A stretch of 64,000 bases of DNA from a virus: positions 30,994 to 94,993 of IMG/VR virus record IMGVR_UViG_3300037851_000222; one strand, given 5' to 3'. Each line of letters opens with the position of its first letter. Position 1 is the stretch's first letter. Position numbers and translations under genes: made by a program. The notes below the pieces were generated by a model. That model was not told the DNA's origin. It worked only from the letters and a program-made list of their open reading frames with translations, and did not search any database. Shown piece after piece: positions 5,630 to 53,147 of this stretch.

Positions 5630-6206
5630 GGGGAGCCTCGCTTCCGCTTACCTTACCCGAGCTTCGTATAAACGCCAGCGGCAGCTCATCCTTCCCGAAG
5701 GTGAACAGGCAGGGCAGGTACTTCTCAGTTAGCCGCTTGGTGTTCTGCGGTGGTTTGCGTGCAGTCCTGGGGCGTCCGATGCCGGCGTAGCCGATGGTCC
5801 CGTAGAGCGGCTTGGGCAGGTGCTCGCGCCACGGGCAGCACCCGCCCACATGCTTCTGCACGACTTCAATCAGGGGTCGGAACTTGGCGGGGTCAGCGGT
5901 GGCTGCTTGGAGGATTCCGCCGGCTTTCAGGAACCGAACCCATGGTTCGGGGTTCTGCTCGGGGGATAAAACCAGCACGTCGACTACCGGGAGGACTTCG
6001 ACCACCTGATGCTTGCGGTTCAACGGCGTGACCTTCTCCGTGGTGTAGACCGCGGTCAGGTCTGGCCATCGGGACACTTCGGCCACTACAGCCGCGGCCA
6101 TGCCCCCTACGGCCCCCACGGTGAACCCCTCCTTGCGCAGGGGGACGTAGAGCACCGGCAGGAGCGCGACGGCTTCAATCAACCGGTGCGGGAGCACGTC
6201 GGTCAT
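5622..6206 (-). CDS. Degenerate spermidine-synthase-like/SAM-methyltransferase-fold protein
   Basis: Start MTDVLPH, coupled to the upstream stop; VGAVGG, FLKAGGIL and C-terminal TEKYLPCLF resemble SpeE motifs, but the protein is short (194 aa). Confidence 0.4.
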   Translation of the reverse strand: MTDVLPHRLIEAVALLPVLYVPLRKEGFTVGAVGGMAAAVVAEVSRWPDLTAVYTTEKVTPLNRKHQVVEVLPVVDVLVLSPEQNPEPWVRFLKAGGILQAATADPAKFRPLIEVVQKHVGGCCPWREHLPKPLYGTIGYAGIGRPRTARKPPQNTKRLTEKYLPCLFTFGKDELPLAFIRSSGKVSGSEAPHG

Positions 6207-7558
6207 GGAGCGGCTTTCTTCCCCTTCTTGCGCGACATGAGGACCACCGCTCCCAGCCCCAGGGCGGCAGCCACGGACATGGCGGCGATGCTCACCCCGC
6301 CGAAGAACCCTTTGGGAGCCGAGGGCAGGTTGGCCGTCAGTTTGGCGGCTTCGGCCAAGCACTGCTGGTACTCGGCCTCAGTGATCTCCTTGGCGTCGAG
6401 CCGGCGTTTGCAGGAGGCCCGCATGTCGAGGATCATCTTGTTGATGGTCCCGCTGACCTCCTCGTAGACCGCGGCCGAGGCGGATTCCGCCTCCGTCATG
6501 CGGGCGAGCATCCACGCCAGGATGGCTAAGCAGACCACCGTGACGCCGCCGATGACGGCGAACTGCACGGCCCCCCAGACCCCCAGCGCGGCTTGGCCAT
6601 GGGCCTCACCCTGCGGCCACATGCCGAGCGGGTTCAGTCGGCTGTACCCCGCGTTGTCGGTGTCCACGAAGGTCTTTTCAGCCTCCTGCACCCGGGCAAC
6701 CTGCGCGGCCGTCACGGCCGGCTTCATGGTCGGATTGCGCAGCACCTCGTTCATCTTGCGGATGTTCTCTCGGGTGCGCTCACGACTCGCGGCGTATTCT
6801 GCGAACTTGGCGGTGATCTGGTCGAGCAGCACCTTGCCCGAGGCGAAGTCCAGGGTGGTCTTGAGGACACCCAGGGCGGCGAGCTTGGAGTCCATCGCCG
6901 TCGTCTGCGCTGCCCAAGTCTGGAGACTGGACGAGGCCCAGCGGCGGACGATGTCGTTCCAACCTGACTGCTTGAGGAACAAAGCCCAGCCGCCGCCGGC
7001 CAGGGGGTCCGAAGGAGAGAATGCGGGAGGTGTGTCCCAGATGGGGAACTTCCGGTCCCCTCGGTTGTCCTTCAGGAGCCCCTGGACGGCGACGGCGAGG
7101 TAGTTGAAGTTGAGCGTGCCGGCGATGATCTGCTTGATCACCCACTCCAACACGTTGCTGGTGACATCGTACCACTGGCGGTCGGTCAGGCCGCTGCCCG
7201 AGGCGAACAGGACGGCCTGCGCCGCTTCCTTCGGGTTGGATAGCCAGGTGGAACCACCCTGCGCCGCGGTCCACACCGCGTTGCTCAGTTGATCCCCGTA
7301 GGACATGACGTAGTAACACCAAGCCCAGTACCCGTTCGGCCCGGACTGCGCCCAGTTCTGGAAGGCGGTCCACCGGGCCTGCTGGTCCGGCGCGAGCCGC
7401 CCGGCCATGCCCATCTTGACGACGCTGGCTGCCGTGCCGAACAGTTGGGCCAGTGTGTGCCCGCTGGCCGAGAAGCTGGGAGTGGCCTTGTAGATGATGT
7501 GGTTAAGCAGGGCTTCGCGGATGGCGAACTCGGACCCCCGCTGGAAGGTGTCACTCAC
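6203..7558 (-). CDS. Helical membrane protein with two C-terminal TM segments
   Basis: GTG start in a GTGA overlap; hydrophobic segments followed by a RKKGKK tail. Confidence 0.65.
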   Translation of the reverse strand: MSDTFQRGSEFAIREALLNHIIYKATPSFSASGHTLAQLFGTAASVVKMGMAGRLAPDQQARWTAFQNWAQSGPNGYWAWCYYVMSYGDQLSNAVWTAAQGGSTWLSNPKEAAQAVLFASGSGLTDRQWYDVTSNVLEWVIKQIIAGTLNFNYLAVAVQGLLKDNRGDRKFPIWDTPPAFSPSDPLAGGGWALFLKQSGWNDIVRRWASSSLQTWAAQTTAMDSKLAALGVLKTTLDFASGKVLLDQITAKFAEYAASRERTRENIRKMNEVLRNPTMKPAVTAAQVARVQEAEKTFVDTDNAGYSRLNPLGMWPQGEAHGQAALGVWGAVQFAVIGGVTVVCLAILAWMLARMTEAESASAAVYEEVSGTINKMILDMRASCKRRLDAKEITEAEYQQCLAEAAKLTANLPSAPKGFFGGVSIAAMSVAAALGLGAVVLMSRKKGKKAAP

Positions 7559-7989
7559 GACTTGGCCTCCAGCGCCTCTCGGCTGTTCTTCCACTCGCGG
7601 AAGATGGCCTGGAACTGCGGCGGGGCCATGTCCGTGATCTTCTTTTTGAGCGCCTGAACCTCGGGCGTCTTGGGCGCGGCCTCCAGGGCGTTGATCATTG
7701 CCCATGCCGTTGACTCAAGGGTCTCGGCCTTGGCCTTGGCCTTCTCCACGGCCGGCGGCCGGATGTGGGACAGGGCCATCTCGCCCAAGCTGTTGATCAT
7801 CGGCCCCCACACGGGGATGAACCGGGCGAACTTCAGCCCCACCGCTACGGCGGCCAGCACGCCACCTACCCACCCGGCGGTCTGCCACATGCCCGCCAGG
7901 GCGTCGTCAATGACCTCGCCGGCCCCATCGGGGTCAGTCAGCCAGTCGGTGTAGGAGGCGTCAGGGGGTACGGCTTGGGGGGACGACAT
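7555..7989 (-). CDS. Membrane protein
   Basis: One hydrophobic helix; translationally coupled. Confidence 0.6.
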   Translation of the reverse strand: MSSPQAVPPDASYTDWLTDPDGAGEVIDDALAGMWQTAGWVGGVLAAVAVGLKFARFIPVWGPMINSLGEMALSHIRPPAVEKAKAKAETLESTAWAMINALEAAPKTPEVQALKKKITDMAPPQFQAIFREWKNSREALEAKS

Positions 7990-8200
7990 ACTGGACTCCG
8001 CTTTTGTCGATGGTGTAGCCGAACGCCTTTTCGTGGGCTTCCGCGATTTTCTGGAGTTGCACGCCTATTTTTCCAGCATCAGCACCCTTTTGGAGGGCCA
8101 CGCCCATGTGCCAGATGTTGGCCATGCACTTCTGGTCGTCACGGCTGGCGCCGCAGCCGCAGAGGGTCAGGGCGGCGGCGAGGAGCAATATGCGGCGCAT
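7961..8200 (-). CDS. Putative lipoprotein
   Basis: MRRILLLAAALTLCG-C signal peptide with lipobox-like end. Confidence 0.65.
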   Translation of the reverse strand: MRRILLLAAALTLCGCGASRDDQKCMANIWHMGVALQKGADAGKIGVQLQKIAEAHEKAFGYTIDKSGVQYVVPPSRTP

Positions 8201-8202
8201 GT

Positions 8203-51973: not shown

Positions 51974-52023
51974 AAGTGGTGTGGGGATACCATACTATCC
52001 TCACAACTCACTGGCGAAAAGAG

Positions 52024-52056
52024 CAACCCCCGGCATCGCCGGGGGTTGTTTCTTTT
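52024..52056 (+). terminator. Rho-independent terminator between convergent blocks
   Basis: CAACCCCCGGC-ATC-GCCGGGGGTTG followed by TTTCTTTT. Confidence 0.88.
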
Positions 52057-52576
52057 ACCCTAGATGAACACAACAGGGGCGGCGCAACCGTCCGCAAGCG
52101 GCCACGGATCGAACTACTGGAGGGCTTGCGTCGGCTGACCTGGCCAACACGGTCGAGCACCCAAGATTGAAGCGTATCGGAGCACCTTGTAAGGATTGCC
52201 AACTCGATATGTCGATACTGCTGTTATGAACTAAAGATAGCTCACACAATAAAAGTGCATACAAACCACGTCGAACGCACCCCGTCACTGGCGACATACC
52301 ATCGGGGATCGGGACAGCCCCTTGATGATAATAACAGACGGCCCGCTCTGCGGCGAGCGTCGGGCGGGCGCCGCCGGGTCTCTGCGGGTGTAGAAACACT
52401 ACATCCACAGCGGCGTTCGGTGGTACCTCCGAAAAACACTGTGGTTTTGCCGTATAAGAACGAGTAGCCCATAAGCACCAACCGAAACGTGCTATGTCAG
52501 CCATCTTTCTCTTAAAAATGACTGGGACTTCCTCGCCGGCATGAGGGCCTACAACAGAAAAAACGATGAACGACAT
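52055..52576 (-). CDS. Hypothetical protein (lower GC)
   Basis: TAATG-coupled to the HTH gene. Confidence 0.55.
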   Translation of the reverse strand: MSFIVFSVVGPHAGEEVPVIFKRKMADIARFGWCLWATRSYTAKPQCFSEVPPNAAVDVVFLHPQRPGGARPTLAAERAVCYYHQGAVPIPDGMSPVTGCVRRGLYALLLCELSLVHNSSIDISSWQSLQGAPIRFNLGCSTVLARSADASPPVVRSVAACGRLRRPCCVHLG

Positions 52577-53046
52577 TACTTCACCAACACAGCATAGTCG
52601 TTAGCGACAACAGACTGAAGTCTCCAGCCGGCTGCCTTCTTCTGCCGCAGCCACTGCACCCCAGCCTCAAGGTGTTGGATCATCTCATCAACACTCTTGG
52701 CACCGTCAAACATCCCGCAACCACGGCAAAACTCCACACCGGTCTGCTGCCCGCTGTACTCTTTGAGAATGTTATACACAGTCATAGAAGTGATGCCAAA
52801 ACGACTGGCGAGTTCGGCTGCGGGCATGCCTTGTGCGGAAAGGGTGGCAACAAGCCTCTTTTGCGTGTCGTCCAACTTCGGCTGGTAGCCCTGGGAACGA
52901 ACGGACCCGCCAAGCTGTTTTACCACCCTGGACACCATGTCCGTGGATATGCCGTGCTTGGCGGCAATGTCTACCACTCTCATGTTAGATTGGTAATCTA
53001 ACAGAATGGCCTGGTTTCGTTGCTGGCGTTCGTCGGAGGTGGGCAT
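52576..53046 (-). CDS. Double HTH DNA-binding protein
   Basis: VVDIAAKHGISTDMVSRVV and AAELASRFGITSMTVYNIL; extended -10 TGATATAAT upstream; GTATAAAC abuts the ATG. Confidence 0.8.
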   Translation of the reverse strand: MPTSDERQQRNQAILLDYQSNMRVVDIAAKHGISTDMVSRVVKQLGGSVRSQGYQPKLDDTQKRLVATLSAQGMPAAELASRFGITSMTVYNILKEYSGQQTGVEFCRGCGMFDGAKSVDEMIQHLEAGVQWLRQKKAAGWRLQSVVANDYAVLVK

Positions 53047-53147
53047 GTTTATACCCCTTTCGGACGCCATTATATCACTTTACAGAGAAGTCAAGCAAAC
53101 CGGAGCGAAGTTTTGCACCGGGGGTAAACACGGTGTGTGGGCGGTGA

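Follow-up and report, generated by a model that had tools for sequence, protein, structure and literature searches.

Some phages carry many copies of one operator dispersed over the genome. In phage P1 a single protein, C1, reads copies of an asymmetric 17-bp word throughout a genome of roughly 90 kb; most copies overlap promoters of separate operons, and the gene of the regulator is under the same control. These dispersed C1 operators are mentioned in PMC8546580. In Cluster A mycobacteriophages the repressor (gp71 of L5, the TipsytheTRex repressor) is a monomer with two DNA-binding domains that reads an asymmetric 13-bp site, of which more than 20 copies lie in promoters or, close to stop and start codons, in short gaps between genes (PMC9283540). 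Here we describe an 8-bp word, GTATAAAC, hereafter the box, in a 64,000-nt stretch of viral DNA (the window) that comprises bases 30,994-94,993 of the linear 94,993-bp IMG/VR virus record IMGVR_UViG_3300037851_000222 (63% GC). We consider it somewhat more probable than its alternatives combined that a phage-encoded sequence-specific protein reads the box as a dispersed asymmetric operator, placed within host-type sigma70-like promoters of one regulated gene class.

MarA, SoxS and Rob of Escherichia coli are monomeric proteins with two helix-turn-helix (HTH) units that bind an asymmetric site, the marbox, whose allowed orientation depends on the distance to the -35 element (class I and class II). 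Lambda CI (at PRM and PR), phi29 p4 and the Mu proteins Mor and C activate transcription from just upstream of a weak -35 element and repress it over the core promoter. Compared with the known systems, the box differs in being a short word, in occupying several rigid positional classes including one upstream of the -35 element, in its mixed orientation and in having an unrelated candidate reader.

An earlier note on this DNA, made from the letters of the window, had described 11 copies of the pattern GTWTAWAC, and all 11 were found where it placed them. Only 0.28 copies are expected in the window, and none of 100 dinucleotide-preserving shuffles reached 11. In the whole record the pattern occurs 15 times (about 0.25 expected), and GTATAAAC is the most over-represented non-coding 8-mer. 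The enrichment is real and strong. With the coding regions defined by a gene map based on GC content at third codon positions, 14 of the 15 copies fall in the non-coding 19% of the record (binomial P about 1e-9). The statement that the box always lies just upstream of a gene start therefore holds for these 14, the copy at record position 1443 being inside a gene. A literature search for the word itself returned primer sequences only.

As an IUPAC pattern GTWTAWAC is self-complementary, and the earlier note had taken the box for a palindrome read by a dimer. The actual word is not self-complementary. All 15 copies read GTATAAAC or its complement GTTTATAC, and the symmetric spellings GTATATAC and GTTTAAAC do not occur in the whole record (P = 3e-5 for two freely varying W positions). 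The asymmetry extends to the flanks: when the copies are aligned as GTATAAAC, the three upstream positions are T (10/15), Y (13/15) and S (13/15), and the next base downstream is a purine in 14 of 15. The six copies located in promoter spacers all extend to TYCGTATAAAC. Flanking by CG, said to be frequent, is seen on both sides in only four copies. Apart from the palindrome and the dimer, the first description of the box was correct.

To relate the box to promoters we used a weight-matrix scan with controls; the matrix is of the E. coli type and may not be the host's. Read toward the downstream gene, a sigma70-like -35/-10 pair scoring at least 8 is present in 12 of 13 box regions, compared with 12.5% of random windows and 27.5% of the same windows with shuffled flanks (P about 2e-6). 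The proposed tie between the box and sigma70-type promoters was thus borne out. TTG occupies the -35 position at 11 of 14 box sites (10 of 13 promoters), and every -10 element but one carries the A2/T6 signature. A stringent consensus scan, requiring at least four of six matches in the -35 element, found sigma70-type sites no more often than by chance, because the -35 elements here match TTGACA at only three of six positions. At two sites, those of a 159-aa and a 672-aa gene (ATG at window 22780 and 43486), the -10 element ends 6-7 nt before the ATG. This distance independently supports the two -10 assignments and suggests that the mRNAs starting there (window 22780-22792 and 43473-43488) are leaderless, a possible clue to the host group. 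Bacterial-type promoters are used in this virus family, since a box-free TTGACC-N17-TACAAT stands before an orthologous gene on the metagenome contig L016. Clusters of strong consensus promoters that lack the box lie at record 3.6-13.4 kb and window 30.9-33.7 kb; only a subset of promoters is therefore marked by it. We also considered an archaeal TATA box; it was ruled out by the bacterial-type -35/-10 pairs, the Shine-Dalgarno sequences, the family A polymerase and the freshwater-type relatives.

The box lies between -50 and +25 of predicted promoters, and 13 of the 15 copies are inside or beside one. Measured from the predicted start, its placements fall into at least five geometries, each with a single box orientation (Table 1). 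Class A, the arrangement box-N7-TTGnnC-N16/17-(-10), comprises the four promoters exactly as they had been described. TTG at one offset in four of 15 sites has a P of about 1e-5 before correction for the number of offsets, and offset pairs agreeing within 1 nt number 12 where 2.7 are expected (P = 4.5e-4). Copies in the spacer or over the -10 element at 18446, 39835, 43459 and 49793, and weakly at 5666, were likewise recovered, as was the variant GTCTAAAC in the spacer of the 16174 promoter. The proposal of two positional modes, upstream of the -35 element with a 7-bp gap and inside the core promoter, was right in that discrete modes exist and too simple in their number. Four sites lie outside the window and had not been seen when the geometries were first noticed; those that could be classified fall into classes B and C, a small independent confirmation of the classes. 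Two class A promoters have a second, reverse box in the core promoter, exact at 49793 and with one mismatch at 16150. Over all classes the box points along transcription in 10 cases and against it in four (binomial P about 0.09).

This mixture of orientations bears on the nature of the box: it would be expected of a site for a bound protein, not of a core promoter element. It is improbable, in our judgement, that the box is a core element of the T4 late type (TATAAATA, read by gp55 with gp33 and gp45), recognised by a phage sigma-like factor or an unrecognised RNA polymerase, with transcripts that begin a few bases further on, perhaps at the conserved purine. Like the T4 element, the box is an invariant 8-bp AT-rich word containing TATAAA upstream of one gene class; a purine follows in 14 of 15 copies, ATG or GTG directly at three sites, and the copies are perfect, as for phage polymerase promoters. 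The mostly unannotated proteins and a possibly incomplete record (CheckV completeness 63%) also leave room for an unknown factor. However, T4 late promoters are unidirectional, have no -35 element and lie at -10, whereas the box takes five positions in both orientations beside -35/-10 pairs, with TTG at 11 of 14 sites, four reverse copies and four copies at -50 to -43. Four of 14 copies face away from all genes and have no coding potential beyond them, which argues against a directional promoter element. A promoter that is independent of a -35 element would not need the properly spaced TTG and the A2/T6 -10 element present at nearly all sites. The class A boxes lie 50 bp upstream of the predicted start at a fixed gap to the -35 element. 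No RNA polymerase, sigma factor or gp55-like family is among the top 25 Pfam/PHROG families listed for the record, and the box is therefore probably not a phage-polymerase promoter. One-mismatch variants followed by ATG (record position 3452 and window 30947) were inspected too and start no credible open reading frames (ORFs).

The position of class A invites a different alternative, namely that the virus exploits a site for a host protein: a global regulator, a nucleoid protein or an UP-element-like contact with the C-terminal domain of the RNA polymerase alpha subunit (alpha-CTD). The box is an AT-rich island in a 63% GC genome, its class A position (-50 to -43) overlaps the UP-element zone, phages are known to borrow host regulators, and the proposed phage readers are candidates only. 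UP elements are, however, degenerate A/T tracts confined to -40 to -60, and nucleoid-protein sites are degenerate as well, whereas here 15 identical copies of an invariant 8-mer occur also in spacers, -10 elements and leaders, none of which alpha-CTD binds. Compared by eye, the consensus sequences of IHF, LexA, CtrA, DnaA, NtcA and H-NS do not fit the box, which serves as a lead only. The related viruses that we retrieved, possibly from other hosts, lack the box. We rate a host-protein site as unlikely, on a par with the core element.

Some boxes sit at gene junctions in a manner reminiscent of the stoperators of L5, where a prophage repressor acts as a roadblock to elongating polymerase. For the box this would make the nearby promoters incidental. 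Besides the L5 precedent (PMC9283540), such a role would agree with an asymmetric word at gene ends and starts, with the TAA stop of the upstream gene inside the box at two sites (16174 and 35668) and with the box abutting an ATG at two. Against it stand the fixed -35/-10 spacing in classes A, B, B' and C, which argues for initiation, and an orientation that does not uniformly follow transcription (10 of 14 forward). There are, moreover, 15 sites only, no integrase of the usual kind and no related prophage in 185,579 species genomes (GTDB). We give this reading very little weight. The Cluster A sites themselves are nearly all co-oriented with transcription and act mostly on elongation outside promoters; the box, at 8-11 bp as opposed to 13 bp, has 13 of 15 copies in or beside predicted promoters, and its orientation is mixed but locked to class.

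As to a dispersed operator, the strict asymmetry of the word and the fixed orientation within each positional class point to a reader that is probably asymmetric, not a symmetric dimer. What the box has in common with the C1 and L5 networks is the many asymmetric non-coding copies, overlapping predicted promoters of several transcription units. P1 differs in that C1, with 283 aa, has no detected relation to the HTH protein described below, and in that P1 is a proven temperate plasmid prophage. C1 is not known to have a fixed upstream class (at -46). With the marbox, the box shares the dependence of orientation on distance to the -35 element (A, B and D forward, B' and C reverse); marboxes are 20 bp long, degenerate and only activating, and their readers belong to the AraC family. 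Lambda CI, p4 and Mor/C differ from the proposed reader in using dyad-symmetric sites, in binding as dimers or tetramers and in serving a handful of promoters.

The sequence itself shows that the box is enriched, asymmetric, tied to promoters and arranged in positional classes; that a protein binds it, with what sign it regulates and which protein it is are inferred, and on this basis the following mode of action can be proposed. At 10 sites the box lies in the spacer, over the -10 element or within the first 25 transcribed bases, where a bound protein would keep RNA polymerase from binding or from escaping the promoter and so repress. At the four class A sites, where the box is centred at about -46 with a rigid 7-bp gap to a weak TTGnnC -35 element, the protein could contact alpha-CTD or sigma region 4 and possibly activate. 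Alternatively, it might cooperate at class A promoters with a protein on the second core-promoter box, as present at 49793 and, with one mismatch, at 16150, and repress these too. Behind the strongest promoter of the record, the box at +8 to +15 would give negative autoregulation of the gene for a 156-aa HTH protein.

This 156-aa protein (52576..53046, minus strand) is the only clear HTH protein by Pfam (HTH_23, 7e-13; HTH_28, 6e-10; also HTH_7). As had been described, the copy at 53047 abuts its ATG, and the public gene call starts at the same ATG. A single-sequence AlphaFold model (pLDDT, the predicted local confidence, 71.6) has two three-helix bundles (residues 4-46 and 60-97), and an alpha/beta domain at the C terminus. 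In fold comparison even its best matches are weak (E 0.02-0.05); among them are Tc3 transposase and Pax6, whose bipartite DNA-binding domains recognise asymmetric sites as monomers. An asymmetric site would be explained by a single chain that carries two HTH units. The Pfam match to Mor is marginal (E 8e-4, HTH only), and the matches to HTH_23, HTH_28 and HTH_7 are not of the AraC type. We regard it as the leading, though unproven, candidate for the box reader. A box in the leader of this gene is consistent with the autoregulation suggested earlier. Other DNA-binding candidates are listed in Table 1; a small ribbon-helix-helix protein, dimers of which can read short non-palindromic words, would escape these searches.

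Several observations weigh against a phage-encoded operator reader. A bipartite HTH protein would be expected to read more than eight invariant base pairs, and 15 perfect copies accompanied by few variants that look functional are seen more typically with polymerase promoters. If a repressor of most regulated promoters is expressed early, a release step has to be assumed in addition. The promoter hexamers are predictions from the E. coli-type matrix; site 5666 has only a weak promoter (score 3.2), and the copy at record position 1443, inside a gene whose frame is supported by codon-position GC, fits no class. An exhaustive HMMER search found no orthologue of the 156-aa protein, only tandem-HTH-repeat proteins, and the box is enriched in none of the related loci, three viral and 15 from metagenomes. 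Finally, the sole recombinase found is a small 302-aa serine type, which does not establish a temperate lifestyle.

If the box is such an operator, it adds one case to the known dispersed-operator systems of phages (e.g., P1 and L5) and no new category. It is nevertheless the first handle on gene regulation in a lineage in which almost all proteins are unannotated. It marks at least 13 promoters, and hence likely transcription units, and separates a regulated class from the box-free consensus promoters. It also nominates a small set of candidate proteins, and the orientation-locked classes give clear predictions. In a stronger and rather doubtful form of the proposal, a single small protein of the bipartite HTH type, for which 15 billion database proteins include no relative, would run the whole regulated programme of a lineage with unrecognisable structural genes through an oriented 8-11-bp word, activating from -46 across the rigid 7-bp gap and repressing from the spacer, the -10 element or the leader. 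If true, this would amount to a compact code based on position, of a kind so far undescribed among phage regulators.

This virus is far removed from all that have been cultured, and its record, for which CheckV estimates 63% completeness, may be incomplete; a comparison with 50,697 phage records gave no DNA match. The genes recognised by PHROGs and Pfam serve replication and modification, and the top 25 families listed include no terminase, portal or capsid. Downstream of the boxes are genes for a PAPS-reductase-like enzyme, a transglutaminase-like protein, an ART-PolyVal protein and a DUF3185 protein, and many without annotation. With most downstream genes unannotated, the designations "structural operons" and "late regulon" given to them earlier are not established. 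Single-protein scans of IMG/VR gave no relative. Alignment-based scans yielded the three viral and 15 metagenome loci, whose proteins are only 29-58% identical, and a search of GTDB genomes gave no relative. Closer homologues (P0002-P0007) have 46-54% identity in the alignment, some on contigs of up to 92 kb.

Table 1. Box classes, box-associated promoters and selected genes. Coordinates refer to the window unless marked as record positions; positions with a sign are relative to the predicted start, and scores are those of the weight-matrix scan.
Feature	Location (strand)	Box orientation	Box position and promoter elements	Score	Associated features
Class A	16174, 22822, 35668, 49758	forward	-50/-49 to -43/-42		
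Class B	record 19555, 26413; 39835, 43459	forward	spacer, -26/-24 to -19/-17		
Class B'	18446; 5666 (weak promoter)	reverse	abutting the -35 element		
Class C	record 17011; 49793	reverse	-15 to -8, TATAC of the box supplying the -10 element		
Class D	53047 (+8..+15); 28482 (+18..+25)	forward	leader, abutting the ATG		
Copies outside the window	record 1443, 17011, 19555, 26413				
Weak promoter-like sequence	5650..5678 (-)	reverse	CTGGCG-N17-TAAGGT; box 5666-5673 abuts the -35 element	3.2	box 36 nt upstream of ATG 5629 (378-aa gene); geometry and flank GCTTCGTATAAACG same as at 18446
Class A promoter	16139..16181 (-)	forward	box 16174-16181 (-49..-42), N7, TTGCAC (16166-16161), N16, TATGAT (16144-16139)	11.1	box holds TAA of upstream gene; reverse one-mismatch box GTCTAAAC (16150-16157) in spacer within 6-bp dyad; followed by AGGAGG Shine-Dalgarno and ATG 16109
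Class B' promoter	18431..18458 (-)	reverse	TTGCCG-N16-TACCAT; box 18446-18453 (-29..-22)	9.4	ATG of 133-aa gene at 18401; gene supported by codon-position GC
Class A promoter	22787..22829 (-)	forward	box 22822-22829, N7, TTGTCC, N16, CATGAT	8.2	-10 element ends 6 nt before ATG 22780; mRNA probably leaderless
Class D promoter-like sequence	28431..28489 (+)	forward	TTGACA-N15-TACAAC; box 28482-28489 at about +18..+25		box abuts ATG of 30-aa ORF (28490-28582)
Class A promoter	35668..35710 (+)	forward	box 35668-35675 (upstream TAA inside), N7, TTGCCC, N16, TAGCAT	9.4	ATG 35723
Class B promoter	39826..39853 (+)	forward	TGGACG-N16-TAAAGT; box 39835-39842 (-25..-18)	9.2	ATG 39865
Class B promoter	43451..43478 (+)	forward	TTGCGT-N16-TAGGAT; box 43459-43466 (-26..-19)	8.1	-10 element ends 7 nt before ATG 43486 of 672-aa transglutaminase-like protein
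Double-box promoter	49758..49801 (+)	forward; second box reverse	box 49758-49765 (-50..-43), N7, TTGCAC, N17, TATACT	12.9	-10 element part of reverse box 49793-49800 (-15..-8); precedes 446-aa gene, start 49887 fixed by homologues
Extended -10 promoter	53047..53098 (-)	forward	TTGCTT-N18-(TGa)TATAAT; box 53047-53054 at about +8..+15	15.3	strongest promoter of the record; box between AGGGG Shine-Dalgarno and ATG 53046
396-aa protein, HTH_24	27045-28235				other DNA-binding candidate
120-aa winged-HTH protein	31190-31552				other DNA-binding candidate, weak
84-aa Xre-like protein	56689-56943				other DNA-binding candidate, weak
Replication genes in the record					family A DNA polymerase, SNF2 and UvrD helicases, primase (PHROGs/Pfam)
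Modification and other genes in the record					several DNA methyltransferases, PD-(D/E)XK nuclease, small serine recombinase (PHROGs/Pfam)

The 302-aa recombinase is of the resolvase/invertase type (window 53401-54309, minus strand), and its gene is the second one upstream of the double-HTH gene; the PHROGs list for the record has one more member of the DNA invertase family. Invertase crossover sites were considered as a source of the repeated word and were ruled out by the unconserved flanks and by the locking of the box to promoter geometry.

The 30-aa ORF behind the class D box at 28482 contains three cysteines and overlaps the start of the PAPS-reductase-like gene in a ATGGGTGA coupling motif, by which the two are translationally coupled. 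The 446-aa protein behind the double-box promoter (window 49887-51227, plus strand) and its metagenomic homologues have a basic, Arg/Lys-rich N-terminal half followed by terminal repeated (L)AGYVxAPSYAG motifs; no family or phage match was found for it.

One of the related viruses (G003, IMGVR_UViG_3300037504_001427; 87.6 kb with terminal repeats) carries about 28 small paralogous genes at loci L009-L011 (record positions 26,080-38,524 and 73,123-80,145). All of them start with GGAGG-N4-ATGAGATATCCAGTAGG (MRYPVG) and continue with Gly/Tyr/Phe-rich repeats. We considered this striking repeat as an analogous box and rejected it, as it is the conserved MRYPVG gene start; the other over-represented 8-mers of that genome are coding.

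Window 30859-33844 is low in GC (down to 39%) and has at least five consensus-like sigma70 promoters on both strands, all box-free; an origin or a region of early control may lie here. A probable terminator is present at window 52024-52048, an 11-bp GC-rich hairpin with CTCTTTT after it, at the point where gene blocks running rightward and leftward meet. The family A DNA polymerase (window 59747-62182, minus strand) contains an insert at about residues 461-622 whose best matches are segments inside phage large terminases and NrdA genes, and which looks like an intein or a homing-endonuclease insertion.

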